64,000 nt of DNA from an uncultured Verrucomicrobia subdivision 3 bacterium (GTDB lineage: Bacteria > Verrucomicrobiota > Verrucomicrobiia > Limisphaerales > UBA8199), in NCBI GenBank assembly GCA_903913865.1, contig CAIWMU010000149.1:151-64150 (forward strand). The letters run 5' to 3'. Positions 7,322 to 42,353 of this stretch are shown in pieces; the stretch's first letter is position 1, and the number at the start of each line of letters is the position of its first letter. Position numbers and translations under genes: made by a program. Below the pieces are notes generated by a model. That model searched no databases, was not told the origin of the DNA, and worked only from the letters and a program-made list of their open reading frames with translations.

Positions 7322-7360
7322 GTCTGGAAGGCCAGGGATTACCGACTCAAGACCTTCGAA

Positions 7361-9940
7361 TCAATGTCGGCGAAGGATGAGTCGGTGATCGACTCGGCGG
7401 GTTTGGGTGTAGTCGAGAGGCGGGAGGGTGGTCAATGTGGGGGACTCCGTCTCGTTGAGCATGCTTTTTGCCAGTTGCTGGAGCCGTTGCCAGCGCTCCC
7501 ACAATAGCTGGGGGGCATGGGCGATCTGGCGCAGGAGGCTGCGCCATTCTATGATTGCCCGGTCAATATCCCCGGGCCCCAGGCGCTCCGATATCCAGGC
7601 GTGTTTCGCGGCCGGGTCCTTGTGAACCGCGGCGACGATGACTTCGGCCCCGGCTCCATATTTGGGAGGCACACCGTTCTCCAGATAGCCCGGAACACTC
7701 TGGAGGCCGTAGGATCGATGGCATGTCTCGGCCAGGCGCCCACCCCACCGGTTTTCATCCCCGCAAAAACGAAACCCTCCATCGAGGTTTGCAATATCGT
7801 AAACCAGTTCCTCAAGCTGGTAGGAATCGTCCTCCAGCGCAGCGGCAAGGGCTAGCCCATCACCTTGGGAGAAAAAACTGACAAGCGTGCCCCTGCGTGT
7901 CGGCACTCCGGTGACATCGATGAGTCCCAACCGCCTCCACAGCAGGGCCACGCCGGTGGATGTCGGCAAGGCGGCGCATACCGCGATCCGCTCGCAGCGG
8001 GCGCAATCCGACGGAATCACATCCCGTTGGATGGGTTTCCAGATGGCCACACCGTGCCGATCCACCGGGACGCGGAGTGTCAGGTCTGCGATGCTTGTAA
8101 TGGCTAGAATCCGCTGACCTTCCTCTGCAAACCTGACCACAGGAGTTTTGTTTTGGGCGAGTTTTTCTATCACCAGGGGACGAAGTGACTCCAGCCAGAC
8201 CTGATCCGGGACCTGACGCCCACTCCAGTTCGTGAGGCGCCGAACCCATTTGGCGAGCAGAACCTTCCCTCCCTCCAACCGATCGGCCACGGTGGATGCC
8301 CGGCCATGAATCGTGATGCCATTTTCCTGGGAAAGGACGCAAAGAACCCCCTGACCAACCTTCTCCACGGCCGAAGCAGAACCGAGCGCGGCAACAAGCG
8401 AGGGAGGGGGGGCATCCAGGGCCCTGGTATCCGGAGTTTGTTGTGTGGCAGGGGTTAGAATCTCCCCCAGAGGTCGGGGATGTTGCTCGCACAGTGGTTC
8501 CCATTCGCCCCGGCTGTTGAGCATTTCCAAATAGCGTTTTCGAACGTGGCGGGCGCGCTCTGAGTCGGTGCGCAGGTTGCAGGGAGTGTCAGGGTGCTTC
8601 AACGACTCTTCGATTCCCAACACGATCGGTTTGGTGGTGAAAAGGCGATCCTGAGCCTGAACCGCCTCCCGGAAAGGGTCTTTCCCGCTTTCCGCCGCCA
8701 CGCGCATGATGCCCAGGAGGGCAGCCCAATCCACAGCGCGACTGCGGGTGAGGTGGCCGGGATGGCCATCCAGCAGGCGCAGTTCATTGGCGGTGATCAG
8801 GACGAAACCGGTCTCATCCAGTCCACGGCGTCCAGCGCGGCCGAACATCTGCATCAATTCATCAGCCCGCAACAATTGCTCGGCCTCCTCCCGGCGGTAG
8901 GATTCTCCCGCGAGCGCGACGCTGCGCAACGAGAAATTGATGCCAGCCGCCAGCCCCATCGTTGCGACCACGACTCGGAGCTGCCCCGCTTTGGCGAGTG
9001 GTTCGATCACTCCAGCCCGGGCACCATAGCTTAATCCGCTGTGGTGGTATGCCACGCGGGCCTTGAGCAAGCGTGTGAGACTCTCCCCGGCGATCGCCCG
9101 CTGTTCGGGTGTCAGTTGTAGAGGGTTCGGATTGGGGAGCTGGCGGGATAATTCGCCTGCCATGACTTCGGCTGCGTGACGGCGCGGGGCAAAAATCAGG
9201 ACCGGGCCCAGATCCTCAGCCAGGGCTTTGGCGACGAGCCGGGGCCAGTAGCCACGGATCTCGGAAGGAAGGTGGTAGTTCAGGGTGCTCGCATGGACCT
9301 CCTCAAGAGGCACGGGGCGGATGTCGTGGCGGATCAGCACAGCGGAACGTCCAAGGCGTTGCAACCAGTGAACGACATCCTGCGGATTGGCCACGCTGCC
9401 GCTCAGGAGCAGCAACTGCGTGTGCGCCGGAGCCATGGCGATGGCCAACTCATAGTTCAAGCCCCGATCCTGATCGCTGATCATCTGATATTCATCAACG
9501 ACAAGGAGTGATGGGCCGTCTCCGCAAATCAGGCGGTTCTTTTGAGTTTCAAGTGTTGCCACCAGAACAGGAGCGTCCAGATTCTCTGCCAGATCCCCGG
9601 TCGCAATCCCCACATTCCAACCCCGGGCACGCCATTCCGCCAGCTTGTCATTTGCTAGTGCCCGGGTTGGAACAGTATAGATCGCCTGGCCCCTGTTTTT
9701 CCCCTGATTGGACCACAGCTCAAAAACAAGCGTCTTCCCCGCGCCGGTGGGGGCCTGGACGACGACGTCCTGACCGGCACGGAGCGCGGCGACCGCCTGT
9801 TGCTGCCACAGGTCAGGCACTGCCATCTGCTGCAGCGCGGGCAGCGCATCAAGCTGTGAGCCAATACTTATCACGGGGGACAAGATAGACGCATCTTCCA
9901 CGGCGGGAAAGCCCGATGGGATGGATCGGGCAGGAAACAA
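7361..9940 (-). CDS. Ski2/HelY-like DEAD/DEAH-box helicase with a roughly 450-aa uncharacterised C-terminal half
   Basis: Motif I VQAPTGAGKT, motif II VVDEYQ, motif III LSGS and motif VI QMFGRAGRRGLD are present in the first 400 aa or so. The rest has no motif I recognise. An alternative start is the ATG at 9826 (MAVPDLWQQQ). Confidence 0.88.
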   Translation of the reverse strand: MFPARSIPSGFPAVEDASILSPVISIGSQLDALPALQQMAVPDLWQQQAVAALRAGQDVVVQAPTGAGKTLVFELWSNQGKNRGQAIYTVPTRALANDKLAEWRARGWNVGIATGDLAENLDAPVLVATLETQKNRLICGDGPSLLVVDEYQMISDQDRGLNYELAIAMAPAHTQLLLLSGSVANPQDVVHWLQRLGRSAVLIRHDIRPVPLEEVHASTLNYHLPSEIRGYWPRLVAKALAEDLGPVLIFAPRRHAAEVMAGELSRQLPNPNPLQLTPEQRAIAGESLTRLLKARVAYHHSGLSYGARAGVIEPLAKAGQLRVVVATMGLAAGINFSLRSVALAGESYRREEAEQLLRADELMQMFGRAGRRGLDETGFVLITANELRLLDGHPGHLTRSRAVDWAALLGIMRVAAESGKDPFREAVQAQDRLFTTKPIVLGIEESLKHPDTPCNLRTDSERARHVRKRYLEMLNSRGEWEPLCEQHPRPLGEILTPATQQTPDTRALDAPPPSLVAALGSASAVEKVGQGVLCVLSQENGITIHGRASTVADRLEGGKVLLAKWVRRLTNWSGRQVPDQVWLESLRPLVIEKLAQNKTPVVRFAEEGQRILAITSIADLTLRVPVDRHGVAIWKPIQRDVIPSDCARCERIAVCAALPTSTGVALLWRRLGLIDVTGVPTRRGTLVSFFSQGDGLALAAALEDDSYQLEELVYDIANLDGGFRFCGDENRWGGRLAETCHRSYGLQSVPGYLENGVPPKYGAGAEVIVAAVHKDPAAKHAWISERLGPGDIDRAIIEWRSLLRQIAHAPQLLWERWQRLQQLAKSMLNETESPTLTTLPPLDYTQTRRVDHRLILRRH

Positions 9941-10192
9941 CCCCGTTCTTCCTCAGGGCATCCCATTTCGACCGCATCGGTTGCCGGGGGGCGACGGGTC
10001 CTGGCTCAGGCGGATCCAGTATGGCGGACCATTCAAGCTTCAGGTATGCTACCGGCATGAAGTGCAAGAGCCATCATGGCAGGCGGGACAAGTTCTGGTT
10101 GATCAGCTTGCTGTCCATAGCGACATCACGCTGGAAGATCATGCCCTGCGGATTTCAAATGATGCGCAGGATCGATATCCATCCGAGTTGAT

Positions 10193-10942
10193 ATGGTCGT
10201 GAACCTTCCAGTTTCTTCCACAGTTGGGGCAGGTGCGCGAAACCCCATCTTCGAGGTGCGGGGATTAACCAAGATCTATGGCATGGGAGATGCGGAGGTG
10301 CAGGCCCTTGCCGGGGTGGATCTTGATCTCTTTGAAGGGGAGTTGGTTGTGTTGCTGGGGCCTTCCGGGAGTGGGAAGACTACGCTGCTTAACAATCTTG
10401 GAGGTCTGGACGTGCCAACAGCTGGTCAGTTGAGATATCGCGATTTTGATTTGTCCGATGCCAGTGAGGCCGAGTTGACGCAATACCGGAGGGACCGGGT
10501 GGGGTTTATTTTCCAGTTTTACAATTTGATTCCCAGCCTGACTGCTCTTGAGAACGTGGGGTTGATCACGGAGATCGCCCGCGATCCAATGCCTCCGGAG
10601 ACTGCCCTTGAAATGGTCAACCTGGGTGCACGGCTGGATCATTTCCCGGCGCAATTGTCCGGTGGTGAGCAGCAAAGGGTCGCGATCGCCCGGGCTATCG
10701 CCAAGCGTCCCGAGGTTCTGTTGTGCGATGAGCCAACGGGAGCCCTGGATGTGCGTACCGGAATTGTCGTTCTGGAGGCCATTCAACGGGTCAACCGGGA
10801 GTTGGGGACGCTCACGGTGATCATCACACACAATGCCATCATGGCGGATATGGCTGACCGGGTGATCCACTTTTCGGACGGGCGTGTGCATCACATCCAT
10901 GAAAATCCGGAGCGGGCTCCGGCGAGTTCGCTCAAGTGGTGA
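10193..10942 (+). CDS. ABC transporter ATP-binding protein (MacB/LolD/FtsE-type)
   Basis: Walker [10 protein letters not shown], signature [14 protein letters not shown] and Walker [12 protein letters not shown] are present. Confidence 0.95.
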
Positions 10943-13308
10943 TGATTTCCCATCTGGATAGAAAATTGCTAAGGGATCTGCGCCGGTTGAAGGGGCAGGC
11001 CGTGGCAGTTGCCCTCGTCATGGCGTGTGGTTTGGCGATGATGATCATGGCCCGCAGCCTGATTCACTCCCTCGACACAACGCGGCAGGTCTATTACGAG
11101 GAGAACCGCTTTGCCGATGTCTTTGCCTACCTAAAGCGCGCACCCAATTCCCTCGTGGCGCGAATTGCGGAAATCCCGGGTGTGGCGACGGTGCAGCCGG
11201 ATTTGGCGGTCCAGACCACTCTGGATATGCCCAACATGGATGAGCCTGCCAGCGGCATGGTCCGATCCCTCCCTGATTTTGAGGAGCCCGCACTCAACAG
11301 GCTCTTTCTCCGCGCAGGTCGGTGGCTCACCCCGGGAGCATCGCATGAGGTGCTTGTTGGTGAAGCTTTTGCAGATGCCAACCAGTTGCATCCCGGTGAC
11401 TGCATCACCATGCTTCTAAACGGCCGCAGGCAGGTGATGAGGATCGCCGGGATCGTCCTATCGCCGGAATATATTTTTGAGTCACGTCCCGGAGCGGCCC
11501 TTCCGGACAACCGGACCTATGGAACTTTTTGGATGCTCTACCGGGACCTGTCAGCCGCATTTGATATTTACGGGGGATTCAACCACATCTCGATCAGTCT
11601 TGCACCCGGGGCATCCGAGCGGCCGGTGATCAGCGCCCTGGATGAATTGTTGAGACCCTATGGCGGCCGCGGCGCCTACGGTCGCGAAGACCACCCCTCC
11701 CACATTCGTGTTTCGGACGAAATCAGGATTCTGAAGACGCTCTCTATTGGATTTCCGCTCGTGTTTCTAAGTGTGGCGGCCTTCATGACAAACGCAGTGC
11801 TGACCCGGTTGCTGGCGTTACAGAGGGAGCAGATAGCGGTGTTGAAAGCCTTTGGCTTTCGCAACAGCCAGATTGTGATCCATTATTTGAAGTTCGGCCT
11901 CGTGATGGTCGTGGGGGGCACAGTAATGGGGGCAGGGGGGGGTGTTGTGCTGGGGCATCAACTGGTGGAGATGTATCACCGTTTTTTTCGCTTTCCAGAC
12001 CTTTCGTTCAGGCTCGACCAGACCGCCTTTCCCCTTGCGCTCGTGGTCTGCACCTTCGCTGCAACGGCCGGGGTATACAGTGCGGTGCGCCGGGCGGCGA
12101 AACTGCCCCCTGCTGAGGCGATGCGACCGGAGCCACCGGCAAACTACCGCCCGTCCTTGCTGGAGCGGACCGGGGTTGCCCGGGTGTTTTCCCATACCTT
12201 CAGGATTGCGATCAGGAATCTGGAGCGCAGGCCGTTTCAGGCAGTTTTCACCGTTGCGGGACTCGCACTGGCCACGGGCATTCTGATCGTGCCGAATGCC
12301 TTCCGCGATGGAGTGGATCAGGTGCTGGATTTCCAATGGGATGTCGTGCAGCGTCAGGATCTGGGGATCGGCCTTGTTGAGCCGGGCAGTTCGCAGATCG
12401 TGAATCTTTTCCGGCGCCTTCCAGGTGTGGTGATGGTGGAGCCGACCCGGGCGGCATTTGTCCGGATCCGTTTCGGGCATCAGCGCAGGCAGTTGGGCAT
12501 ACAGGGGATACTCCCATCCGGGTTGCACACCCGTGTGGTGGACCGGTTCTCCCTGCCTATCTCCCTGCCTGAGAGTGGAATGGTTGTCTCGGCCAAACTT
12601 GCGGAGGTTCTTGGTGCCCGCGTGGGGGATGATCTCGAGGTGGAAGTGCTTGAGGGGAGGCGGCCCACCCGATTGGTGCGGCTGGTCGGTCTGGCCGAAG
12701 ACTTTGCAGGCATGGCCGCCTACATGGATATTCACGCCGTCAACCGCTTGCTTGGGGAGGGGGATGTGATCACGGGCGCCTCCTTCCGTGTGGATGACCG
12801 GGAACGCGGACGGTTTTTGCGCGCGTTGAAGGACATTCCCCGTGTGGCCTGGGTGGCGGTGAAGAATTCGCTTAGAAACAATTTTCGGGAAACCACGGCG
12901 GCGAGTATCGGCTTGATCCAGAAAATCTACATGGTATTCGCGATTGTCGTCGCATTTGGGGTGGTTTATAACAATGCCCGCATCTCGCTCGCGGAGCGGG
13001 CCCGGGAGCTGGCAACACTGCGTGTGGTCGGCTTTTCGCAACGGGAGGTGGGGGCGGTGCTGATCACTGAACTGGTGATTCTGGCTGTGCTGGCGGTCCC
13101 GGTTGGGTTGCTGCTGGGAACAGGCTTTGCGGCCGGGATCATGCGGGCAGTGAACACCGAGACCGTGAGGTTGCCGCTGGTGCTTACGGCATCCAACTAC
13201 GCGTTTGCGGTGCTTGTGGTTCTGGTGGCATCAAGCGTCTCTGCGCTCGTCGTTTTACGCAAATTGAGTCAACTTGATCTTGTGGGCGCTTTGAAGGCGC
13301 CGGAGTAG
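10942..13308 (+). CDS. ABC transporter permease with duplicated FtsX-type modules
   Basis: Long ORF (790 aa from the track's GTG at 10936) with two blocks of FtsX-like transmembrane helices separated by large extracytoplasmic regions. The ATG at 10942 overlaps the upstream TGA (TGATG), implying translational coupling. Confidence 0.9.
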   Translation: MISHLDRKLLRDLRRLKGQAVAVALVMACGLAMMIMARSLIHSLDTTRQVYYEENRFADVFAYLKRAPNSLVARIAEIPGVATVQPDLAVQTTLDMPNMDEPASGMVRSLPDFEEPALNRLFLRAGRWLTPGASHEVLVGEAFADANQLHPGDCITMLLNGRRQVMRIAGIVLSPEYIFESRPGAALPDNRTYGTFWMLYRDLSAAFDIYGGFNHISISLAPGASERPVISALDELLRPYGGRGAYGREDHPSHIRVSDEIRILKTLSIGFPLVFLSVAAFMTNAVLTRLLALQREQIAVLKAFGFRNSQIVIHYLKFGLVMVVGGTVMGAGGGVVLGHQLVEMYHRFFRFPDLSFRLDQTAFPLALVVCTFAATAGVYSAVRRAAKLPPAEAMRPEPPANYRPSLLERTGVARVFSHTFRIAIRNLERRPFQAVFTVAGLALATGILIVPNAFRDGVDQVLDFQWDVVQRQDLGIGLVEPGSSQIVNLFRRLPGVVMVEPTRAAFVRIRFGHQRRQLGIQGILPSGLHTRVVDRFSLPISLPESGMVVSAKLAEVLGARVGDDLEVEVLEGRRPTRLVRLVGLAEDFAGMAAYMDIHAVNRLLGEGDVITGASFRVDDRERGRFLRALKDIPRVAWVAVKNSLRNNFRETTAASIGLIQKIYMVFAIVVAFGVVYNNARISLAERARELATLRVVGFSQREVGAVLITELVILAVLAVPVGLLLGTGFAAGIMRAVNTETVRLPLVLTASNYAFAVLVVLVASSVSALVVLRKLSQLDLVGALKAPE

Positions 13309-27830: not shown

Positions 27831-28682
27831 TCAGTTTGGGCGCTTTGCGGGAGGTTGGTAGTTCTTGTGCCAGTATTGTTCCCAAAGCTTTTCCAACCGG
27901 ACCACTTCCACATGACTGTCCGCAAAGTGAACACTGATCCCTCCCGGCAGGGGTGATCCTGAAGGCACCAGTTTTGGCGCTGCCGTGGCACTGGGAATAT
28001 TCCCATGCCGGGCGATGGTGATGCGTTGCATCCCGGCGTTGTTGCCCCCCTCGTATAGGTTGCGCGAGGGTGAATCTGTCGCGGTCGGCCAGGTGTCCAC
28101 CCACGTGGAATCGAAAAGCACCGGGGTTTTGGATGGAAACTGAATGGCACCCTCGGTCCGGAACTCCTTGGTGGCGTCATCGTTCGCGTAGAACCATCCA
28201 TTGAGTGCATAGCCCCCCTGATAGTTCGTGGTGCCATAAATCCATTTCCATGGTTGATCCGCCATCCCGAAACCACCGAGCAGGGTGTTCCGCTGCACCC
28301 AGGGATTTTGCTCCGGGGCCACAGGGCAGATACGCACTTTGTTCACTGCAGCGTAGTAATTGATCAGCTTTTTCATCCAGAGATCGTAGGAATCCCCCGG
28401 TGCCAGATAGGGCATGGTCTTGCCGGTGTCATTCACATACATGAAGTGGGCCATCCCCAACTGCTTGAGGTTACTCACACACTGCACGCCCTGGGCCTTG
28501 AACTTCGCCCGGCTCAGCGCGGGGAGCAGCATGGCGGCCAGAATCGCGATAATGGCAATCACCACCAGTAGTTCGATTAGCGTGAAAGCCCCAAAAAAGG
28601 AAGCCTCTGGGATGCGGTAGGGCACGGGGCGATTGTGACGCCGCGTGTCGGTGTTTGTCGTCGGGCTGTGGTGTGTGGTCAT
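27831..28682 (-). CDS. Prepilin-type N-terminal cleavage/methylation domain protein (DUF1559-like pseudopilin paralogue)
   Basis: It has [26 protein letters not shown] after a roughly 30-aa leader, and a C-terminal FADSHVEVV motif resembling the H-X9-DG type tail common in PVC bacteria. Confidence 0.9.
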
Positions 28683-31734: not shown

Positions 31735-34704
31735 ATGAGACTGCTGCTCGCTCTACTGCTTGGCGTCCAAGCCCTGATGCTGTCGGGTTCCAGCCTTTTG
31801 GCGGGGCCATCCAATCCGGATTGGTTTGCTCGCGACTGGCAGACGGATGATGGTCTGCCGGACAGCATCGTTTACGGTGTGGAGCAGAGTTCGAGTGGTT
31901 ATTTGTGGGTGGGCACACATTCGGGTCTAATTCGATTTGACGGCGAACGTTTCACTTCGTGGCCGCTGCCGATCGCTTCCGCCCCGTGGATCCGGGCGAT
32001 GATGCTGGGGCGGGATGAAACCTTGTGGATGGTGATCGAATCCGGAGAGGGATTTTTGCTTGGCGTTTCAAAGGATGCGACCAACCTGTTTCGTTTTCCA
32101 AGATATTCGGTAACCGGTATCGCCGAGACGCCAGATGGAACCGTGTGGGTAGGTCATGTAGAGGGGCATATTTCCAGCTTCAGGAATGGAAGGACCCGAC
32201 AATTCGGGACTTCCGAAGGGTTGACAGGAATTGGTGGTTGCCGGGTGGTCACAGACATCGAGGGGCGGTTGTGGTTCACGAAGGGGGGGATGGTGGGAAC
32301 GATCGAAGAGGGGAAGGTTCGAAGGCGGCTGCCCCTGAGCGGAGAAACCGCCCGCATTGCACCGGCGCGTGGAGGTGGTATTTGGATTCTGAACGGGAGC
32401 CACCTTCTCAAATCGAGTGACGGTCAATCCACAGACACTCTCGGTGAGTGGCCATCGACCCCGGCTGGCGTTGTTCCCTCAGTTATCTATGAGGACAGCG
32501 CTGGAGGATTGTGGGTTGGCACGTCAGCCGGAGGATTGTTTTTCTGGGATGGCAACGCGTTTCTATCGGTGCGAACGTCGCACAATGTGATCAACTGCAT
32601 CAGGGAGGATCGCGAGGGCAACCTCTGGGTGGGCACTGGCGGTGGAGGCTTGAACCGATTGCGAAAACGAGCAATCGCCTTCCAATCCCCGGCGACAGGC
32701 CTGCCATTTGAAAGTGTGCGGTCATTGTGTGAGGCCAATTCCGGTGACATTTGGGCAGTCAGTCAGCGCGGGGATGTGTGGCGGCAGATGAACCAGCAGT
32801 GGTATCCGGTTCCCAGCCCTGGCGCATGGTCCGAAGGACATGCAACCTGTGTGGCGGCGGATGCGCATGGGGCTGTGTGGATTGGGACCGATCAAGGTGG
32901 ATTGCATCGGTGGCAGGAGGGGCAGGTCAGGTCTTTCGGTCAGAGGGATGGCGGAGTCGGCGGGTGGGTGCGTTCACTGTTGGTCGCCAGAAACGGCGAT
33001 GTCTGGATAGGTCTCGAATCCAGCAATTGTGTCAGCCGCCTGCGACAGGATCAGTTGGCGGTGTTCCCTCTCCCGCCCGGCAGCCTCTCCGTGCGGGCTA
33101 TGGCTGAAGATGGTGCAGGAAACATTTGGATGGGCACTTCAGCAGGAAAGCTTTACTGCTCCAATGATGGCGGTTTGTCGGACGAAACTCCCCGAATGAC
33201 GGGCCCGCCTTCGCCGGTCCGTTGTCTGCGTAGCACGCCGGATGGGAGTTTGTGGATTGGCTATGCCGGGGCAGGTGTGGGTTGGTTGCACAATGGAGAG
33301 TTCTCCCGCTTTGGTATTGAGGAGGGGCTTCCGGACAACTACATCTGCGGAATCGAACAGGACGACAAGGGAGCTCTTTGGTTCAGTTCCCGCCGGGGGA
33401 TCTTCCAGGTGCGCCAATCTGACTTTGTGGAGGCGGTGGGGAGACCTGGGGCGCCGTTGATGGCCGTCATGTTTGGGCGGAATGAAGGGTTGGTGAATGT
33501 GCATGGGGTTTTCGGGGCATGGCCGAACACAGCGCGGGGTCACGATGGGCGGATCTGGTTCGCGACGGTGTCAGGAGTCGTGGTTGTCTCACCGCTGCAG
33601 ACAGGCACGAATCGTGGTCCGCCAGCGGTGATGATCGCAAGATTACTGGTGGATGGCCATCCGCAAGAGATTGCTGCGGGTGGGGGTATCAGGGTTGATC
33701 CAGGGCATCGAAAACTGGCCGTGGAATGTGTCGCGCTCAATCTCGCGGCACCGGAGACCACCCTGTTTAGATACCGGTTGCACGGATTGGATGATCATTG
33801 GAGCGAGCCGACCAAATACAGGGATTTCACGTTCCCACGCCTGCCTGCCGGGGGATATGAATTTGAGGTCACTGCCTGCAATGAGGCCCGCCTTTGGAAT
33901 CCTGAGGGGGCGAGTTTGCGATTTGAGGTCGAGCCGTTTCTGTGGCAACGCTGGTGGTTTCGGTTCGGAGTGCTGGGCGGGTTGCTGGGACTGGTTGGCG
34001 CCATTGTGCGTTACTGGTCGAACCGCCGGTTGCGGAGGGAACTGAAGCTCCTGAAGCAGCGGGAGGAGTTGGAAAAAGAGCGGACGCGGATCGCTCGCGA
34101 TTTGCACGATGATCTCGGCAGCAGTCTGGCGGAAATCAGCTTCCTTGGCTGGTTCTCGGAATCAGCTGAAGTTGATCCTGCGGAATTACGAATCCGATTC
34201 GACAACATCGTCGAACGAACACGCCGGATGACTAGATCGCTGGACGAAATTGTCTGGGCGGTGAATCCGGCCAACGACACCTTGAAGGCCACCGTCAATT
34301 ATCTGGGGTCGCGCGCCCAGGAGCACCTGCGTGCAGCGCAAGTGCGCTGTCGGCTTGACGTGCAGGAGGAGCTTCCCAATTTTGTGCTTCCATCACAGGT
34401 GCGCTACAACCTTCTGCTGGCGGTGACGGAAGCCATGACCAACGTGATGAAGCACGCAGTGGCTTCCGAGGTGTGGCTGCGGATCGCGGTCAAGGGGGAG
34501 AATCTGATCATTCGTGTGGAGGATGATGGAAAAGGTCTTGCTCCGGACGAGCTTCGAGAGGGTCGCAATGGTCTCTCGAACATGCAGCGGCGCTGTCAGG
34601 AGTTGGGCGGGGAGTTTTTGATTGAAAGCGTTAAAGGCGGGGGGACAATGGTCATGTTCACACTCTCCTTGACCCAACTGCGGATCGGCAGGGTGTCCCA
34701 TTGA
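31735..34704 (+). CDS. Sensor histidine kinase: periplasmic double beta-propeller + Y_Y_Y domain, TM helix, HisKA_3, HATPase_c
   Basis: The ATG at 31735 gives MRLLLALLLGVQALM. Many two-component-regulator-propeller repeats are present (DGLPDSIVYGVEQSSSGYLWVGT, GGLWVGTSAGGL and others). The Y_Y_Y string is FRYRLHGLDDHWSE...GGYEFEV. The TM helix is WWFRFGVLGGLLGLVGAIV. The H-box is RIARDLHDDLGSSL and the ATPase G-boxes are EDDGKGL and GLSNMQRR. Confidence 0.9.
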   Translation: MRLLLALLLGVQALMLSGSSLLAGPSNPDWFARDWQTDDGLPDSIVYGVEQSSSGYLWVGTHSGLIRFDGERFTSWPLPIASAPWIRAMMLGRDETLWMVIESGEGFLLGVSKDATNLFRFPRYSVTGIAETPDGTVWVGHVEGHISSFRNGRTRQFGTSEGLTGIGGCRVVTDIEGRLWFTKGGMVGTIEEGKVRRRLPLSGETARIAPARGGGIWILNGSHLLKSSDGQSTDTLGEWPSTPAGVVPSVIYEDSAGGLWVGTSAGGLFFWDGNAFLSVRTSHNVINCIREDREGNLWVGTGGGGLNRLRKRAIAFQSPATGLPFESVRSLCEANSGDIWAVSQRGDVWRQMNQQWYPVPSPGAWSEGHATCVAADAHGAVWIGTDQGGLHRWQEGQVRSFGQRDGGVGGWVRSLLVARNGDVWIGLESSNCVSRLRQDQLAVFPLPPGSLSVRAMAEDGAGNIWMGTSAGKLYCSNDGGLSDETPRMTGPPSPVRCLRSTPDGSLWIGYAGAGVGWLHNGEFSRFGIEEGLPDNYICGIEQDDKGALWFSSRRGIFQVRQSDFVEAVGRPGAPLMAVMFGRNEGLVNVHGVFGAWPNTARGHDGRIWFATVSGVVVVSPLQTGTNRGPPAVMIARLLVDGHPQEIAAGGGIRVDPGHRKLAVECVALNLAAPETTLFRYRLHGLDDHWSEPTKYRDFTFPRLPAGGYEFEVTACNEARLWNPEGASLRFEVEPFLWQRWWFRFGVLGGLLGLVGAIVRYWSNRRLRRELKLLKQREELEKERTRIARDLHDDLGSSLAEISFLGWFSESAEVDPAELRIRFDNIVERTRRMTRSLDEIVWAVNPANDTLKATVNYLGSRAQEHLRAAQVRCRLDVQEELPNFVLPSQVRYNLLLAVTEAMTNVMKHAVASEVWLRIAVKGENLIIRVEDDGKGLAPDELREGRNGLSNMQRRCQELGGEFLIESVKGGGTMVMFTLSLTQLRIGRVSH

Positions 34705-34990
34705 CCGGGTTGGGGTGGCTGAGCCTCGTGTTGTGTTTGCGTCAAAAAACCACCTGTTTAGGGGGGTGCCACAAATGCCGCCGGATGACAGAATAGCACA
34801 AGCCCATGGATGTGTGAACCCGTGTTTTCATTTGAAACGAAGCGGTCCCTTGGAAGTTGCTGCTTTGATTCATGCCGGTGCACGAACTGGACTGACTCCG
34901 ATCAAACAGGAATGCTGGTCGAAAACGCGGCTGGAATCTTGATTCCGCCATGTAAAGCACAGAGCAAAAATACAGAACAAAAATAGTGTA

Positions 34991-37900
34991 ATGAAGAAGA
35001 TAGGCGCAAACCAACAAACATCGGCCATAGGTGCCCCCAATAGTTCAAAAAGCCTCAGGACTCTTACTCTGCGTGACCTCGCTTGTTTGATGGGGCCCTC
35101 CAGATTGGCAGTGGCTCTGCTCATGTTCCAGGGGTTAACAGCCCCTGCCCAGACCTACCTTGTTGATTTTGGATCGACCGGTTCAGCCAATACCACCACG
35201 CTGGGGTCGAGTCCCAACGATCCGCAGAATTATTGGAACAATTTAACCACGACAATCGGTCAGACCGCGAATGGGGTGCTCACCAATCTGGTTTCCTCGT
35301 TAAATCAAACCAGCGCGATCAGCATAAAAATGATCAGCCGCTTCAATGGAGCGAACACCGTTGGAACCACGCTCTCCACCCTTTACCCTGTGAACTCCAC
35401 CAAGGATTCACTTTATGGAAACACTGAGAGTTTCAACAGCCTCACCAATATTTTCCCAAGCTTCAAGCTGACCGGGTTGGCCACCAACACCACCTATAGC
35501 CTCAGCTTTTTTGCGTCGCGCAGTGGGGCCTCGGACAACCGGGAGACCGGCTATAGTGTCAGCGGGGCGAACAGCAATTACACCATTTTGAATGCTTCGA
35601 CCGCCATCGATAACACGGGGCAGGTGCAGGGCGTTTTACCAAGCGCCGCAGGGGAAATAATCATCAGTCTTGCACCTACTCCGGCCAACAATAGCGCGCA
35701 ACATTTCACATATCTGGGGGTGCTCCAAGTGGACGCCATCCCGCCGCAGACACCGCTGGCCTTCAACCTCGAGCCCGTCAGCAAAAAGGTCCAGCAAACC
35801 AAACCGGTCACATTCTCATGTTCGGTGACCGGCTCGCCGCCGTATACCGTGCAGTGGTATGAAAATGGTAGTCCGATTGCCGGTTGGCACCAGTTCTACT
35901 ATACGGTTCCCTCCGCCGACCTTTCCATGAACGGATACCGATATTCCGTGACCGTCAGCAATCTGGTTTACGCCATCGCCAGCACCAACGCCGTGCTCAC
36001 TGTGCTTAGCGATACCAACCCCCCCACGGTCATCAAAGCAGCCAGTTACGACGGGGGATCGATTCTGTTGACTTTCAGCGAACCTCTGGAAGTCAGCACG
36101 CCTTTGAATCCGGCAAACTATATCGTGAATGCCGGGGCGGTGCCGGTGTCTGGGGCAACACTCGTTGGGGACAGCCAGTCAGTCGTTCTGGCACTTTCTG
36201 CCTCGATCACGGGCTCATTCACAGTCGTTCTCAACAACATTCAGGATATCGCTGGCAACACCATCGCTCCCAATACGAGCATCAATGGAAACGTTGTCGC
36301 TATTGAAGACCAGAGTTTCCTGTTGGATTTTGGAGGGGCTAATACGACGGAGGTCGGTCCGAGTCCGGATGACCCCAACAACTTCTGGAACAACGTGAAC
36401 TCGAGCGTCTCTGCCTCGGATACAGGAGAGTTGCAGAATCTTGTTTCCGTTCACAGTGCCCAGACAACCCTGGGTTTGGTGATGATCCGCAGGTTCAATG
36501 GCATCAACGAAAATGGCACTCTGGTTTCCACGGTCTTCCCCCAGGATGCGGCTCGGGACTCCATGTATGGAAACACTGAGGCCTTTAGTGCTGGTGCAGA
36601 CTTCTTCCCGAGTTTCAAACTCACCGGCCTGAATCCGGGACGGGCATACAACCTGACCTTCTATGCGTCGCGCGCCGACGTAACGGACAATCGGGAGACT
36701 GGCTATACCGTAGTGGGGGCGAATGCAGGGTTCACCGCCTTGAACGCCGCCAACAATGTCGACAACACAGCAAAGGTGGAGGCGATCTTTCCGACCCTAT
36801 CAGGGGAGGTCAGCGTCAGTCTGGCACCGACAACAAACAACAACAACGCGAACCATTTCACCTATTTGGGTCTCCTGCAGTTATCCCCCGGTGTGGTTCC
36901 TCCGCAAAGTGCCTTGTCGTTCACCAAACAACCGGTGAGTCAGAGAGTTGCCCAACTTAAGCCGGTCACCTTCACTTGCGAGGTTGCTGGTCCTCCACCC
37001 TATTTTGTCCAATGGTATGAGAATGGGCAACCCGTATCTGGTGCCAACGGCTTGAGCTATAAGATTGATGCCGCGCAGTTGCAGATGAATGGAGCGTATT
37101 ATGCCGTGACCGTCAGTAATCTGGTTTACGGGGTTAGGAGCACAAATGCCGTGCTGACAGTCAACTCTGATACCAACCCGCCGTCCTTGATCAAAGCCGT
37201 CGGTTACAGCGGAACCACCGTAGAGTTGACCTTCAGTGAGCCTTTGGATGCCACCACAGCGATCGATCCTGCCAATTACAAGGTGGACAACGGGGTGGTT
37301 GCTGTAATAGCAGCCAACTTAAGCACGGATGGATTAAAGGTCACGTTGACTCTGGACACGACTTTTACGACATCGTTCGGTGTGGAGGTCCGCAATGTGC
37401 TGGATCTGGCTGGCAACCTGATCGCCAGCAGCAGTCGTGTCACCGGCAGCGTGGTGGCTATCGAGGACCAGGACCTCCTCATCGATTTTGGTGGTGCAAG
37501 TCTTACCCTGCACGGTGCCTCGCCAGACGATCCAATCAATTATTGGAACAGCATTTCCACGGACGTTGGTGCTGCAGACACAGGTGTGTCGCCCAATCTC
37601 GTAACCTCGCACAACACGACATCCCTCGTGGGCTTGAGCATGATCAGTCGTTTCGGGGGAGCAAACACTGCAGGAACGACAGCGTCTGCCCTCTTCCCGC
37701 AAAACGCAACGCGGGATACCCTGTATGGCAACACCGAGGTCTTCAGCGGGGCCAGTAATATCTTCCCTAGCTTCAAGCTGACCGGATTGAACCCGGCCCG
37801 CAAATATGACCTCACGTTTTTCGCGTCGCGCATCGGCGTGAGCGACATTCGCGAGACTGGTTACAGTGTGAGTGGCGCGAATAGCAACTACACCCGCTTG

Positions 37901-38242
37901 AACGCTGCGAACAACATCAATAACACCGCCCAGATAACGGGAATGTCACCCAATTCCGCGGGTGAGATCACCATTAGTCTTGCGCCGACTCCCGCCAACA
38001 ACAATGCCAACCATTTTACCTATCTGGGCATCCTGCAGGTGTCGCCTTATGTGCCACCGCTGCAATTTCTTCCGTCCGTCATCGAGGGGGGAAAGATCAA
38101 ACTGCAGTGGACCGGTATCGGCCAGCTTGAACGGGCCCTGTCTGTAAACGGATCGTGGACTCCGATCACTCCCGCACCCACTTCGCCTTATCAGGAGGAT
38201 GTTGTGGCAGGAGAAATTCGGTTCTACCGTCTGAAAAAGTAG
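34991..38242 (+). CDS. Large secreted protein: 3 copies of an unassigned roughly 190-aa domain, 2 Ig (I-set-like) domains, 2 SbsA/Big_5-like domains, and a C-terminal FYRL module
   Basis: 1083-aa ORF. The signal peptide MGPSRLAVALLMFQGLTAPAQT begins at the internal ATG 35090, which is an alternative start. Domain boundaries were read from repeated motifs (see the repeat feature). Ig domains have PVTF(S/T)C.V.G.PPY.VQWYENG. Big_5-like units have SDTNPP..IKA......LTFSEPL......NY......D.AGN. Confidence 0.85.
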   Translation: MKKIGANQQTSAIGAPNSSKSLRTLTLRDLACLMGPSRLAVALLMFQGLTAPAQTYLVDFGSTGSANTTTLGSSPNDPQNYWNNLTTTIGQTANGVLTNLVSSLNQTSAISIKMISRFNGANTVGTTLSTLYPVNSTKDSLYGNTESFNSLTNIFPSFKLTGLATNTTYSLSFFASRSGASDNRETGYSVSGANSNYTILNASTAIDNTGQVQGVLPSAAGEIIISLAPTPANNSAQHFTYLGVLQVDAIPPQTPLAFNLEPVSKKVQQTKPVTFSCSVTGSPPYTVQWYENGSPIAGWHQFYYTVPSADLSMNGYRYSVTVSNLVYAIASTNAVLTVLSDTNPPTVIKAASYDGGSILLTFSEPLEVSTPLNPANYIVNAGAVPVSGATLVGDSQSVVLALSASITGSFTVVLNNIQDIAGNTIAPNTSINGNVVAIEDQSFLLDFGGANTTEVGPSPDDPNNFWNNVNSSVSASDTGELQNLVSVHSAQTTLGLVMIRRFNGINENGTLVSTVFPQDAARDSMYGNTEAFSAGADFFPSFKLTGLNPGRAYNLTFYASRADVTDNRETGYTVVGANAGFTALNAANNVDNTAKVEAIFPTLSGEVSVSLAPTTNNNNANHFTYLGLLQLSPGVVPPQSALSFTKQPVSQRVAQLKPVTFTCEVAGPPPYFVQWYENGQPVSGANGLSYKIDAAQLQMNGAYYAVTVSNLVYGVRSTNAVLTVNSDTNPPSLIKAVGYSGTTVELTFSEPLDATTAIDPANYKVDNGVVAVIAANLSTDGLKVTLTLDTTFTTSFGVEVRNVLDLAGNLIASSSRVTGSVVAIEDQDLLIDFGGASLTLHGASPDDPINYWNSISTDVGAADTGVSPNLVTSHNTTSLVGLSMISRFGGANTAGTTASALFPQNATRDTLYGNTEVFSGASNIFPSFKLTGLNPARKYDLTFFASRIGVSDIRETGYSVSGANSNYTRLNAANNINNTAQITGMSPNSAGEITISLAPTPANNNANHFTYLGILQVSPYVPPLQFLPSVIEGGKIKLQWTGIGQLERALSVNGSWTPITPAPTSPYQEDVVAGEIRFYRLKK
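35156..38046 (+). repeat. Intragenic module repeat of about 1.16 kb; the unassigned domain occurs at 35156-35740, 36317-36883 and 37475-38046, with a fourth copy at 39595-40170 in the next gene
   Basis: The (Y/F/L)L(V/L/I)DFG openings fall at 35156, 36317 and 37475, spaced 1161 and 1158 nt. All four copies share DFG..(8)..SP(N/D)DP.N(Y/F)WNN, RFNG.N..GT, RD(S/T).YGNTE.F, FP(S/R)FK(L/I).GL, (F/Y)ASR...(S/T)D.RET.Y.V.G and NNNANHFTYL. Confidence 0.9.
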
Positions 38243-38274
38243 TTGAATCTCAACGGCTGCATTCGGGAACCCGT

Positions 38275-38310
38275 GTCCACGGAAGCCATTCGTAAACGGC
38301 TTCCGTGGAC
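38275..38310 (+). terminator. Perfect 13-bp hairpin between the two secreted-protein genes (terminator or attenuator candidate)
   Basis: GTCCACGGAAGCC-attcgtaaac-GGCTTCCGTGGAC lies 33 nt after the stop at 38242. No U-tract follows, so it may be a partial terminator or an RNA-stability element. Confidence 0.4.
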
Positions 38311-38418
38311 GATTCTGGCACATCCCATTCGATGGGGGGATTACAGTCATGCGATTCGCATGACGATAGTTGCCTCGGACGGTGCTGAAATAGGCCCTCC
38401 TGAGTCCTTCGAAAAGTT

Positions 38419-40368
38419 ATGATGATCGCACGCACATTCCGGAGGTTCCTTCAATCCGCCTGCCTGCTAATTGCCCTCGCAGTCCTTACCCCATCGACCA
38501 CCCGGGCCCAGATCCGTGTCTTGTTTATCGGTAACAGTTTCACCCTTGGCAGTGGCGACGCAACGGAACGCGCCCAGACGATCGGGGGTGTACCGGAAAT
38601 TTTCAGTCGGCTTGCCCTGGCCGGTGGACGGACCAATCTCACCGTGGTGATGCGCGCGGTGGGTGGGCAAGGTTTCCAGTTTCACGATCAGGACCCCACC
38701 TCCCAGGCTACAATCCGGGCCCAACCGTGGACTTACGTCGTGCTGCAAGCCTACAGTACCGAGCCCACGCACCTGGTGGATGGCACCCACAGTCTATCCA
38801 GTTTCTACACCTATGGTAAGGACCTCTATTTGTGGTCCATGACCAACAATCCCAATACCCAGGTCCTCCTCTATGAAACATGGTCCCGGTCGTCCTCCCA
38901 CTCGCTCATCAGCGGTATCTCCACCCCCTCTGGTTTTGCGAGCACAGCGGAGTTTCAGGCAGAACTTCGGACAAATTATCAAAACCTCGCGAATTCGCTA
39001 AACCTCGCGAATCCCACCAATCCGCCCGTGATCGTTGCCCCGATTGGGGACGCCTGGGAAAACGCGGGTGGACTGCGTTCCCCTACCACCCAGGGTTTTG
39101 CCAGCCTGTTTTCCAGTGACAACTATCACGGCAATGACAACGGCTACTATTTGAATGCGGCCGTTTTTTACTCCAAGATCTTCGGAACCAGTCCCCTGGG
39201 GCTTTCGAGCAATTCGCTTGTTACCAGCTTAAATCTGCGGCTCACCGTGCCGCCCGCTTTCCTTGAACAGGTGGCATGGTCCACTGTCCAGGGATCCACT
39301 CTGGCCCCCATCGCATTCGTTCACCAACCGGTCAGCCAGACGGTTGCGCAATCGCAGACCGTCACCTTCAGCACGTCCGTTGTGGGCACTCCGCCGTTCG
39401 CCATCCAGTGGTTTAGCAACGGCATGCCGATCCCGGCCGCCAACCAACTCACCTATACCTTGTCGGCGGTGACGACAAACATGAGTGGATCCCTTTTCTC
39501 CGTCGGCGTGAGCAATCTAGTTCAGGGGACTCTCAGCACCAACGCTGTCCTCACCGTGGTTCCGATGCTGCCACTGGACACAAATATGCAAACCTTCTGG
39601 TTCGATTTTGGCAACCTGAACACCACGCAATCAGGGCCCTCACCCAACGATCCTGTGAACTATTGGAACAACATCATTAATAGCATCGGCTGCAACTCTT
39701 CCGGTCGGTTGAACAACCTCGTGGATTCCCAAAACAAGCAGACGAGCCTTGGCTTGGTGATGTTAAATCGGTTCAACTCCAACAACGAGAACGGCACTAC
39801 TTCATTTCCCGGGCTTCCTCAGAACGCCACGCGGGATTCGCTCTACGGCAATACCGAAACCTTCAACGGCATGGCCAATATATTTCCGAGATTCAAGATC
39901 GTCGGGCTGAACGCCACATCGACTTACAACTTCACTTTCTACGCCTCACGCACCGGGGCCTCCGACAATCGTGAGACTTGCTATACCGTGCAGGGGAGCC
40001 GTACGAACTTTGCCGCCCTGAACGTCGCAAACAACATTTCCAATTCAGTGATCGTCAGCAGCATCAAGCCCACGAGCCTCGGAGAAATTGTCATCAATCT
40101 CACCGCCACGGCGAACAATAACAACGCGAACCACTTCACCTACCTCAGTGTTATGCGAATGGATGCGCTCCCGCCATTGCCCGTGTTTGGACCATCGGTC
40201 CTAACCAACGGTCAGATCAAGCTCAGTTGGGCCGGTAGCGCGCAGTTGGAACGTGCTCTTTCCATTTCGGGGTCCTGGAGCCCGATCACACCCCGACCAT
40301 CCTCCCCATACACCGAGGAGATAGTGGCAGGCAGAAGCTGTTTCTACCGGCTGATCGCTGATCCATGA
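38419..40368 (+). CDS. Secreted SGNH/GDSL-like (DUF4886-type) hydrolase fused to an Ig domain, one copy of the unassigned domain and the FYRL C-terminal module
   Basis: The signal peptide is MMIARTFRRFLQSACLLIALAVLTPSTTRAQ. Block I is VLFIGNSFT and block V is DNYHGNDNGYYLNA (DxxH). Next come PVSQTVAQSQTVTFSTSVVGTPPFAIQWFSNG (Ig), then FWFDFGNLNTTQSGPSPNDPVNYWNN...NNNANHFTYL. The protein ends in ...CFYRLIADP. Confidence 0.85.
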   Translation: MMIARTFRRFLQSACLLIALAVLTPSTTRAQIRVLFIGNSFTLGSGDATERAQTIGGVPEIFSRLALAGGRTNLTVVMRAVGGQGFQFHDQDPTSQATIRAQPWTYVVLQAYSTEPTHLVDGTHSLSSFYTYGKDLYLWSMTNNPNTQVLLYETWSRSSSHSLISGISTPSGFASTAEFQAELRTNYQNLANSLNLANPTNPPVIVAPIGDAWENAGGLRSPTTQGFASLFSSDNYHGNDNGYYLNAAVFYSKIFGTSPLGLSSNSLVTSLNLRLTVPPAFLEQVAWSTVQGSTLAPIAFVHQPVSQTVAQSQTVTFSTSVVGTPPFAIQWFSNGMPIPAANQLTYTLSAVTTNMSGSLFSVGVSNLVQGTLSTNAVLTVVPMLPLDTNMQTFWFDFGNLNTTQSGPSPNDPVNYWNNIINSIGCNSSGRLNNLVDSQNKQTSLGLVMLNRFNSNNENGTTSFPGLPQNATRDSLYGNTETFNGMANIFPRFKIVGLNATSTYNFTFYASRTGASDNRETCYTVQGSRTNFAALNVANNISNSVIVSSIKPTSLGEIVINLTATANNNNANHFTYLSVMRMDALPPLPVFGPSVLTNGQIKLSWAGSAQLERALSISGSWSPITPRPSSPYTEEIVAGRSCFYRLIADP

Positions 40369-40411
40369 AATGAGTGCGTCTCCCACGTCTCCTGTGTATC
40401 CTCTGCCGAGC

Positions 40412-41035
40412 ATGACCAAAATTGGCATTGTCGAAGATAATCCAACCATTCGCTCCGGGTTGGAGGAACTGGTCACGGGATTGAAGGACTGTCGTTGCAT
40501 TGGAGCGTTTGGTTCTGCCGAGGAAGCCCTGCGAAAACTGCCCGCCCTCAAACCGGAGTTGGTTTTGATGGATATTCACCTCCCTAATCTTTCCGGAATC
40601 GAATGCACGGCGCGGTTAAAGGGGTTGCTGCCGGACGTTGGCATATTGATGCTGACCGTCTATGAGGATGAAGCAAAGATTTTCCAGGCGCTGAAGGCCG
40701 GGGCGAATGGTTACATCCTCAAGCGCACGGGCAGGAGGGAAATTGTGGAGGCAATCAATGAGTTGCGGCGCGGCGGCGCGCCGATGACCAGCGCCATTGC
40801 CCGCAAGGTGGTGGATTCGTTTCGCGAGTCGCCGCCGAAGGAGGAGTCAAATCTAACCCGGCGTCAAACCGAAATACTTGATTGTCTGGCGCGAGGGTTT
40901 TCGAATAAGGAGATCGCCGCACAACTGTCGCTTTCCGTGGACACGGTGGGCTCGCACCTGAAGGAGATATACGAGAAGCTCCGCGTTCACACACGCACCG
41001 CTGCTGCGCTTAAGTTTTTAGGCAGCAAGGAATAA
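40412..41035 (+). CDS. NarL/LuxR-family response regulator (REC + HTH_LuxR)
   Basis: The ATG at 40412 gives [17 protein letters not shown]. The phospho-acceptor context is LVLMDIHLP. The LuxR HTH is [43 protein letters not shown]. The ATG at 40370, 1 nt after the upstream stop, is an alternative start. Confidence 0.9.
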
Positions 41036-41051
41036 CCGTTGGAAACAATTT

Positions 41052-42353
41052 ATGGATAGGGGCGTCGCACAGATGGAAACTCCTCCTGCCACCAGAGCTT
41101 GGTATCGGATCCTCTACGTGCAGGTGCTGGTCGCTGTGGCACTGGGCATTGCCGTTGGTTGGCTCGCCCCCGAATTCGGCAAATCACTGAAGCCGCTCGG
41201 GGACGGTTTTATCAAGCTTGTCAAGATGCTGATCTCCCCGATCATCTTCTGCACTGTCGTCCACGGCATTGCCTCGATGGGTGATCTCAAGAAACTGGGT
41301 CGCATCGGTTTTAAGACGCTTTTGTACTTTGAGGTCGTCTCCACGCTGGCGTTGATCATTGGTTTGGTCGTGGTAAATTTGCTCAAGCCTGGCGCGGGTT
41401 TCAACATTGATCCCGCCACGCTCAATGCCGGGCTCGTCAAGGATTATGCAGTGAAAGCGCACGGCATGAGCACCGTGGACTTTTTGCTGAACATCATCCC
41501 GAAAACTTTCTTGGATGCGCTGGTTGGCGGAGACCTGATGCAGGTTTTGTTCATCTCCATCCTCGTCGCGCTCGCGGTTTCCGGGATGGGACCTCGGGGT
41601 AAACCCATCCTGAACGGCATAAGCCATGCGGCCGAGATGCTTTTCGGTGTCATGGCGATTGTCGTCAGGGTTGCCCCTATCGGCGCGTTTGGTGCGATGG
41701 GTTTCACTGTGGGTAGTTACGGACTGGGCGCGCTGAACAAGCTCCTCGCGCTGATGGCAGCGTTTTATCTCACGGCAGGGCTCTTTGTTGTGTTTGTGTT
41801 GGGCGGAATTGCATGGTGGTGCGGATTCTCGATTTTCCGTTTCATCGCCTACATCAAGGAGGAAATAATGCTGGTGCTCGGCACCAGTTCCAGTGAGACA
41901 GCTCTGCCCGGGATGATTCGCAAGTTGGAAGGGCTCGGGTGCTCCGGTTCTACAGTGGGTTTGGTCATACCCACGGGCTACAGCTTTAATTTGGATGGCA
42001 CGAACATTTACATGGCCATGGCGGCGGTATTCCTCGCACAGGCCACCAACACGCCGCTTGATTTAGGGCATCAAATTTCCCTGCTCGTTGTGGCGATGCT
42101 GACGTCCAAAGGGGCAAGTGGGGTCACGGGTGCGGGATTCATCACGCTGGCCGCCACTCTCGTGGCCGTGCCGGCTGTGCCAATCGAATCGTTGGCCCTG
42201 CTGGTCGGCATCGACCGTTTCATGAGCGAATGCCGTGCCCTCACGAATCTGGTTGGGAATGGTGTTGCCACCGTTGTCATAAGCAGATGGGAAAAGGAAG
42301 TCAGCCCGGAGACCCTGCGGTCCAGATTGCAACAACGCACGGATCCGCAGTAA
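41052..42353 (+). CDS. dctA: C4-dicarboxylate / amino-acid:cation symporter (DAACS family)
   Basis: [15 protein letters not shown]...[22 protein letters not shown]...[11 protein letters not shown]...[11 protein letters not shown] matches DctA-type signatures. The ATG at 41073 (METPP) is an alternative start. Confidence 0.9.

Follow-up and report, generated by a model that had tools for sequence, protein, structure and literature searches.

The 64,000-nucleotide (nt) stretch of contig CAIWMU010000149.1 analysed here (the window; assembly GCA_903913865.1, an uncultured Verrucomicrobia subdivision 3 bacterium) harbors a two-component system in which the sensor histidine kinase and the NarL-type response regulator are encoded on the same strand with two genes between them. 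The intervening genes encode large secreted proteins, P2 and P3, sharing a repeated domain that is here called domain X, and a dctA gene follows the regulator. A synteny comparison detected this bracket in this species alone, namely in at least 22 near-identical contigs from several samples (98.9% identical, evidently one species), and the dctA layout is the same in all of them. Judged from these sequences the bracket is a real, fixed, species-level rearrangement that extends to dctA, and comparative data indicate that it is recent and specific to one species. The simplest reading of the sequences is that P2, a hairpin and P3 were inserted between the promoter, with its palindromic box, and the leader of the regulator in an ancestral kinase-box-regulator unit. 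The initial annotation had suggested that the kinase, the two domain X genes and the regulator form a self-contained module; the idea of a conserved module did not survive the comparison, as relatives keep kinase and regulator adjacent and the domain X genes are either absent there or located elsewhere without a two-component system. The features of the locus are as follows.

31735-34704, + strand: sensor histidine kinase gene, 989 amino acids (aa) from the ATG at 31735; the open reading frame opens at TTG 31693 (1003 aa)
34746-34768, + strand: conserved 23-nt box, AAAACCACCTGTTTAGGGGGGTG, with the palindrome CCACCT-GTTT-AGGGGG at 34750-34765
34789-34794, + strand: -10-like hexamer CAGAAT, 21-25 nt downstream of the box
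34991-38242, + strand: P2 gene, 1083 aa; alternative ATG at 35090
38275-38310 (about 38274-38311), + strand: stem-loop between P2 and P3, with a 13-14 bp stem, a 10-nt loop and no U-tract
38419-40368, + strand: P3 gene, 649 aa
40363-40411, + strand: apparent remnant of the native 5' leader of the regulator, GAAATGAGTGCG ... GTGTAT ... ATG, abutting the P3 stop codon
40412-41035, + strand: regulator gene, 207 aa, or 221 aa if translation begins at the upstream ATG 40370
41052-42353, + strand: dctA, encoding the C4-dicarboxylate transporter DctA; its first base lies 16 nt past the regulator stop

The kinase-to-P2 gap measures 286 nt (385 nt if the second P2 ATG is used), the P2-P3 gap 176 nt and the P3-regulator gap 1 or 43 nt, depending on the regulator start chosen, with no hairpin in the latter. 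The open reading frames, domains, gaps and 13-bp hairpin of the initial annotation were all recovered by the open reading frame map, Pfam and folding.

The two-component pair and the cassette in other genomes

The kinase starts with a signal or transmembrane segment, followed by a periplasmic Reg_prop double beta-propeller (Pfam, E 4e-42) and Y_Y_Y domain (E 7e-14), a transmembrane segment, HisKA_3 (E 1.4e-7, 32.4 bits vs. a cut-off of 24) and HATPase_c (E 6e-14), and its H-box reads ARDLHDDLG. Neither Response_reg nor HTH_18 was found in it with Pfam and the protein stops after HATPase_c, hence it is not a hybrid kinase. In the PDB the periplasmic part matches the sensor domains of BT4663-type hybrid kinases (4A2L/4A2M and 3V9F, E ~4e-37), which bears out, for the sensor part only, the proposed likeness to the glycan-sensing hybrid kinases of Bacteroidota, and the cytoplasmic core matches DesK, VraS and DevS. 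The 989-aa form is the one picked by gene callers in the same-species contigs. The regulator is of the NarL/LuxR type, with Response_reg (E 1e-24) and GerE (E 1e-17) domains; its best NCBIfam similarities are to MctR, MadR and NarL, all with scores far under the equivalog cut-offs; on these scores no named system is its orthologue. An N-terminal alignment of 13 homologues showed conservation of VEDN and LMDIHLP, with the invariant Met at 40412 as the probable start.

Kinase and regulator are very probably cognate, and predicted phosphotransfer partners, because they are the sole HisKA_3/NarL genes in the window, their homologues are adjacent and their identities co-vary. Kinases of the same architecture (34-41% identity) are encoded in 24 metagenomic loci, and a NarL-type regulator, 43-50% identical to that of the window, comes directly after the kinase in 19 of the 19 with enough downstream sequence, as expected for a HisKA_3 kinase; domain X was not found in any of these 19 loci. 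Across 30 adjacent pairs the identities to the kinase domain and to the regulator of the window are correlated with a Spearman rho of 0.86, to which shared phylogeny contributes. The pairs of five related loci compare with the window as follows.

L052: regulator 82% identical, kinase 54% (full length); adjacent, regulator first
L053: regulator 67-69%, kinase 62% (kinase domain); adjacent, kinase first
L088: regulator 62%, kinase 50% (kinase domain); adjacent, kinase first
L089: regulator 79%, kinase 62% (kinase domain); adjacent, kinase first
L090: regulator 78%, kinase 66% (kinase domain); adjacent, kinase first

No domain X gene was found in these five loci. In the relatives, genes for large secreted PATR and N_methyl proteins come 10-30 nt after the regulator, suggesting that co-transcription of the regulator with secreted target genes is typical of the lineage and that order and cargo are what differ here. 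This kinase-regulator lineage is usually found, in relatives, beside small proteins with a prepilin-type N-terminus (N_methyl) and large PATR-repeat proteins (window 27831-28682, - strand; L052, L058, L061, L086), which probably constitute its usual regulon. Wider synteny between the window and any related locus was considered and discarded, dctA alone being shared.

The cassette leads a separate existence. Scanning one genome per species with a domain X profile yielded 51 loci, almost all from Verrucomicrobiota (Limisphaerales / subdivision 3), and the two-gene cassette, X-Ig-Big_5-X-Cterm followed by SGNH-X-Ig-X-Cterm, occurs in 12 other genomes with constant order and strand. Neither a kinase nor a regulator is present within 10 kb in most of them, and unrelated genes flank the cassette (Laminin_G_3, GH16, GH13, DUF2959, dynamin-like proteins and others): P2-P3 is an autonomous cassette. 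The second gene in L010 (cassette at 9260-11882) encodes a Lipase_GDSL_2 esterase (E 1.3e-19) where others have DUF4886, which suggests that the design of an SGNH esterase joined to domain X is kept with interchangeable esterase families. The cassette genes of L010 carry frameshifts that may be assembly errors.

Domain X genes also meet a two-component system in L026, L030, L034 and L036 (~4000-10800), where an unrelated HisKA_3 kinase (695 aa, with a sensor lacking a Pfam match) adjoins a NarL regulator directly upstream of a small PEP-CTERM domain X protein, two X-Ig-X-Cterm genes and then an FG-GAP/ASPIC protein; by sequence this is a second, independent association of the two.

The palindromic box, the regulator leader and the hairpin

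The 23-nt box, found from a weak BLAST match and built on the inverted repeat CCACCT-N4-AGGGGG, follows the kinase stop at 41 nt and precedes the P2 ATG by 226 nt. It recurs within this kinase-regulator lineage, with 9 loci carrying it: in L052 the kinase gene is directly followed by it, with N_methyl and PATR genes 226 nt further on, and in L053, L058, L083/84, L085 and L086/87 it precedes the called regulator start by 42-89 nt, in L058 as a perfect CCATCC-TTTT-GGATGG. L083/84 was fetched after the pattern had been defined, and L089 and L090 were fetched purely as tests; both of the latter carry the box (30.6 and 27.8 bits) in the order kinase stop, 47-48 nt, box, regulator. A 17.8-bit palindromic copy is located upstream of the kinase-regulator operon in L088. 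Scanning with a weight matrix returned a single site in the window and, over the 1.15 Mb of the other loci, nothing above 20 bits except next to this lineage. None of the same-species substitutions in the kinase-P2 gap touches the box.

Seven box regions aligned without gaps share nAnAnT-type hexamers at a fixed offset, which would place the centre of the palindrome near -43.5, a class II activator position. Such a position is used by LuxR-type class II activators, and the box is a candidate operator of the NarL-type regulator. The arrangements compared are best explained by an ancestral layout comprising the kinase, the ~23-nt palindromic box with its promoter and the regulator, often followed by large secreted-protein genes, in what appears to be a Verrucomicrobiota-specific lineage. 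The other edge of the rearrangement lies before the regulator, where ~45 nt preceding Met 40412 are homologous in a DNA alignment to the L083 and L085 regulator leaders, the homology starting at the P3 stop. Insertion behind the box is suggested because the box sits on the kinase side, as in L089 and L090, and the leader remnant abuts the P3 stop.

Several other readings of the kinase-P2 gap were tried and rejected. The box does not resemble an intrinsic terminator on the + strand, where inspection shows an A-tract preceding a short stem and no T-tract following it; on the - strand it looks like one, but no - strand gene lies upstream of the box in any locus. A strong terminator after the kinase gene was dismissed as well, since the region 34702-34760 folds no better than shuffles (z = +0.9), and pattern scans for sigma-70 promoters and terminators were uninformative, their counts equalling the shuffled expectation. 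The 226-nt leaders of the window and L052 are not homologous, their alignment scoring as shuffles do, and the equal spacing is coincidental. No riboswitch or known RNA was found by an Rfam scan of 31-43 kb, the 286-nt gap included, with E up to 1. In L053 short degenerate repeats of the TACCTAGTACCT / GGTATGTACTAG types make up an AT-rich block that lies in the kinase-regulator spacer (9560-9740), upstream of the box.

The hairpin between P2 and P3 has a perfect 13-bp stem, and its folding free energy (dG), -26.7 kcal/mol with a z of -5.9, was matched by 0 of 200 shuffles. A stem-loop of -22 to -37 kcal/mol is present 15-60 nt past the stop of the first gene in 11 of the 13 cassette loci; the best 46-nt folds of coding controls averaged -16.2 +/- 2.5 kcal/mol, with a minimum of -20.9. 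Hairpin sequences vary among loci, the arm CCACGGAAGCC being common to the window, L006 and L018, and related arms occurring in L004, L015 and L023, and a T-tract follows only in L006 and L018. Same-species substitutions in the P2-P3 gap are all outside the hairpin. An origin as a genome-wide repeat of the repetitive extragenic palindromic type was rejected, as the arm motif occurs in the window in the hairpin alone. The hairpin is probably a partial terminator or a 3' mRNA stabiliser favouring P2 over the downstream genes, and its retention among cassettes upholds, as a hypothesis, the suggestion that it could tune the P2:P3 ratio. A second palindrome, TCATGCG-ATT-CGCATGA, is located at 38346-38364, 55 nt upstream of the P3 start (dG -12.4, z -3.8), and may function as an operator or belong to a P3 promoter.

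The secreted proteins and DctA

The domain layouts of the two secreted proteins and the positions of their shared domains are as follows.

P2: signal peptide (cleavage A-P-A|QT), X1 (~55-252), Ig, Big_5, X2 (441-638), Ig, Big_5, X3 (827-1020), ~60-aa C-terminal domain ending FYRL
P3: signal peptide, DUF4886-type SGNH hydrolase (31-292), Ig (297-385), X (391-586), ~60-aa C-terminal domain
Window 35150-35746, 36308-36904, 37466-38056 and 39589-40176: the domain X copies
Window 38045-38239 and 40177-40365: the ~60-aa C-terminal domain (…GSW-PIT…FYRL), which ends P2, P3 and the Verrucomicrobiota orthologues

Both proteins carry Sec signal peptides, and the mature part of orthologous first cassette genes always opens with AQTYLIDFGG. 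Domain X spans ~195 aa, with three copies in P2 and one in P3 at 50-63% identity, and has no Pfam or NCBIfam match even at E = 10. An exhaustive hidden Markov model search detected it in 1,615 clusters (50% identity) at E <=1e-3 and in 975 at <=1e-10. Proteins containing it usually have two to four copies; many short homologues consist of a signal peptide, one domain X and a PEP-CTERM or MYXO-CTERM anchor, and elsewhere the domain is fused to a GH5 cellulase, to Sde182 plus DUF4886, to a GDSL esterase or to cadherin/MBG/Ig repeats. Another architecture, in which one gene has three X domains in tandem without Ig spacers and further X-X genes come ~1 kb later, was observed in L029, L031, L035, L037-L039 and L041-L044. 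The AlphaFold model, built with 64 sequences, is a beta-sandwich (predicted local distance difference test, pLDDT, 96.2; predicted template modelling score 0.92) whose best Foldseek matches are malectin-like ectodomains (ANX1/2, FERONIA) and the carbohydrate-binding modules (CBMs) CBM61, CBM35, CBM32 and CBM6, with modest scores (E ~3e-4, template modelling score at most 0.54, identity 9-18%). On this model, domain X is best read as a new, unclassified carbohydrate-binding-type module (CBM/malectin-like).

The SGNH domain of P3 scores 28.6 bits against a cut-off of 26.7 for DUF4886 in Pfam, a family with no characterised member (PMC9487903). The G-N-S serine and D205-x-x-H208 are invariant in 56 SGNH homologues, and the Ser-Asp-His triad is intact in P3. 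A sequence search of the PDB gave nothing significant for this domain and a fold search was needed: the model (pLDDT 97.1) has as top Foldseek match the DUF4886 structure 4I8I (E 3e-8), acetyl-xylan esterases and other SGNH esterases ranking next, and prediction as a carbohydrate esterase is plausible. P2 and P3 may accordingly be predicted to bind and de-acylate glycans. The ~60-aa C-terminal domain likewise has no Pfam or NCBIfam match at E 10; within the loci fetched with the domain X profile it is confined to domain X proteins, and it occupies the place that PEP-CTERM takes in planctomycete and small homologues. By this analogy it may serve as an anchoring or export domain, PEP-CTERM itself (PF07589) not being found by Pfam at the C-terminus of P2 or P3.

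DctA is a clear family member (NCBIfam, 632 bits vs. a cut-off of 513), and dctA probably closes the transcription unit. Homologues 72-79% identical recur in L010 (12076-13320), L061 (10704-11969) and L075 (3731-4969), more than the ~0.3 chance matches estimated for ~1.15 Mb on the assumption of one or two dctA genes per ~6-Mb genome. A gene for an Sdh/Frd flavoprotein lies ~1.6 kb downstream of dctA in L010. The earlier statement that the bracket lacks a transporter and a classical carbohydrate-active enzyme stands in a narrow sense: dctA follows immediately outside it, and the P3 domain is itself a plausible carbohydrate esterase. That the locus is not a standard polysaccharide utilisation locus (PUL) was confirmed, a SusC-like/SusD-like pair not being found among the genes of 31.7-42.4 kb or in the annotated flanks (22.9-49.4 kb).

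Compared with L054 and L055, the ratio of non-synonymous to synonymous differences per site (pN/pS) was 0.06-0.23 across the kinase, P2 (0.20), P3 and DctA, and the regulator had one non-synonymous and zero synonymous differences, making a ratio impossible. The kinase, P2, P3 and DctA are under purifying selection and none of the five genes shows a sign of decay. In the same comparison pS was uneven (kinase 0.0096, regulator 0, P2 0.030, P3 0.055, DctA 0.037), a pattern that codon constraints could explain, as could recombination of the cassette and dctA with strains of greater divergence.

Regulatory models and known systems

We infer from sequence how the cassette was inserted, that the regulator binds the box, where the promoter lies, which genes are co-transcribed and what kind of ligand is sensed, and on balance we lean, if not strongly, towards a model in which the kinase senses a glycan-type ligand and the regulator acts through the box on P2, the hairpin, P3, its own gene and dctA. 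The periplasmic beta-propeller/Y_Y_Y sensor would detect a glycan-derived signal and the kinase would phosphorylate the regulator, a dimer of which would bind the box, centred near -43, and activate a transcript running from P2 through the hairpin, P3 and the regulator to dctA. The hairpin would cut read-through or stabilise the upstream message, leaving P2 in excess over P3, regulator and DctA, and the remaining read-through would subject the regulator to positive autoregulation. The initial annotation had argued for co-transcription of the regulator with its targets and for a positive feedback loop; the regulator is indeed placed for it (a gap of at most 43 nt, no hairpin) and the box of its lineage lies upstream of P2, the loop itself being only plausible. 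Control of the cassette, and with it the feedback, are plausible because that box is lineage-specific and operator-like.

Some points weigh against this model. Cassettes in genomes without this two-component system must carry their own promoters, and the copy in the window may keep one. The hairpin could be an efficient terminator, in which case expression of P3, regulator and dctA would call for a separate promoter within the 109 nt before P3, where the box was not found. The box pattern was derived from few sequences, with independent confirmation in L083/84, L089 and L090 and, more weakly, in L088, and instead of being the operator of this regulator the box may serve another factor as a promoter element. 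Relocation of the regulator and dctA would give the same layout as insertion of the cassette, and the two cannot be strictly told apart. Finally, the pairs of the relatives may be orthologues or paralogues, one metagenome-assembled genome holding two close paralogues, L052 and L083.

The main competitor, possible although we consider it unlikely, is a passive insertion in which the cassette uses its own promoters, the hairpin terminates transcription, regulator and dctA depend on an internal or constitutive promoter and the real targets, for example PATR/N_methyl genes, are located elsewhere. The cassette's autonomy, seen in at least 12 genomes where its neighbours vary and a two-component system is lacking, would fit such a history, as would the strong terminator-like stem-loop after P2, with its T-tract in L006 and L018, and the association of the relatives' regulators with PATR/N_methyl rather than domain X genes. 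It leaves unexplained, however, why the box with its -10-like element stands directly upstream of P2 and nowhere else in the window, why the regulator keeps ~45 nt of leader and no recognisable promoter or box of its own, and why the arrangement is fixed and under purifying selection. A bolder version of the favoured model gives the cassette a substrate: it would be a surface system that binds a polysaccharide and strips acyl, possibly succinyl, groups from it, DctA would import the released dicarboxylate, and the kinase would sense the glycan and, by way of the box, drive the whole unit with its own regulator. This is suggested because the esterase-X gene stands directly ahead of dctA both in the window (the regulator gene apart) and in L010, with DUF4886 in the former and Lipase_GDSL_2 in the latter, and because dctA is also found beside kinase-regulator paralogues in L061 and L075; we regard it as a long shot. 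If true, it would describe a new, non-PUL type of glycan-processing regulon in Verrucomicrobiota, and would provide the first functions for DUF4886 and for an unnamed domain family of ~1,600 clusters.

It is improbable that dctA is the main output, with regulator and dctA forming the functional unit, the cassette being incidental and an envelope or glycan signal coupled to dicarboxylate uptake. The 16-nt distance between regulator and dctA agrees with it, and so do the 79% identical DctA encoded ~1 kb from kinase-regulator paralogues in L061 and L075 and the 72% identical one directly preceded by the esterase-X cassette in L010, but dctA is on the opposite strand in L061 and L075 and is missing near the closest regulator homologues (L052, L053, L058, L083, L086, L088, L089, L090). 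DctA is, moreover, classically controlled by DctBD or DcuSR and not by a propeller-type sensor. Least credible of all is the notion that kinase and regulator are unrelated orphans, with partners encoded elsewhere, that lie close by coincidence. These genomes do hold many paralogues of the pair, and a distance of 5.7 kb with a 286-nt gap breaks the 200-bp limit for gene strings in MiST2 (PMC2808908); on the other hand, homologues of the same kinase architecture and regulator subfamily are adjacent everywhere else with co-varying identities, the spacing from kinase stop to box is as in adjacent pairs, and no other candidate partner exists within 64 kb.

By sequence the locus passes as a classical HisKA_3/NarL two-component system, sharing with NarXL, DesKR, LiaSR, UhpBA and MctSR the HisKA_3 plus HATPase_c kinase core and the regulator made of receiver and GerE domains. 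Autoregulated operons are common in this class. The differences are that those systems have small periplasmic or membrane sensors, in contrast to the ~730-aa periplasmic double beta-propeller with Y_Y_Y found here, and that kinase and regulator are split here by two large target-like genes. The Reg_prop beta-propeller/Y_Y_Y sensor is otherwise that of the Bacteroidota hybrid systems (BT4663, PDB 4A2L/4A2M) and of the one-component regulator BguR. Sensors of this type bind glycan fragments in hybrid kinases and are known to be modular. Unlike the Bacteroidota hybrids, the system described here has no fused receiver and no AraC helix-turn-helix domain, HisKA_3 instead of HisKA, a separate regulator and no SusC/SusD nearby, and belongs to a different phylum. 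The 'classical' pairs of MiST2 allow 0-2 genes between kinase and regulator (PMC2808908), so that with two intervening genes the layout falls within a known category, although the 286-nt gap exceeds the 200-bp limit and the intervening 5.4 kb consist of secreted-protein genes. As to the cargo, the beta-sandwich model of domain X resembles CBM/malectin modules and P3 has the fold and triad of SGNH carbohydrate esterases (4I8I, Axe2, CE2), whereas domain X lacks membership in any sequence family and its structural matches are modest.

The two-component logic is therefore conventional, an ordinary pair rewired rather than a new kind of system, and current understanding is not overturned. What is new is the proposed rewiring, specific to this species, by which a foreign cassette comes under an autoregulated promoter, together with a candidate operator, the 23-nt box, for a large Verrucomicrobiota lineage of propeller-sensor kinases and NarL-type regulators, and an uncharacterised CBM-like family (~1,600 clusters) paired with DUF4886 esterases, whose context points to glycan binding and de-acylation at the cell surface. 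To our knowledge, regulation in Verrucomicrobiota is almost unstudied, and the locus would offer a natural example of how a cassette dropped into the leader of a regulator can recruit new targets into an autoregulated circuit.

Downstream of dctA, the window continues with an efflux pair (MFS and MFP proteins) on the opposite strand, a LysR regulator and a GH95 fucosidase.

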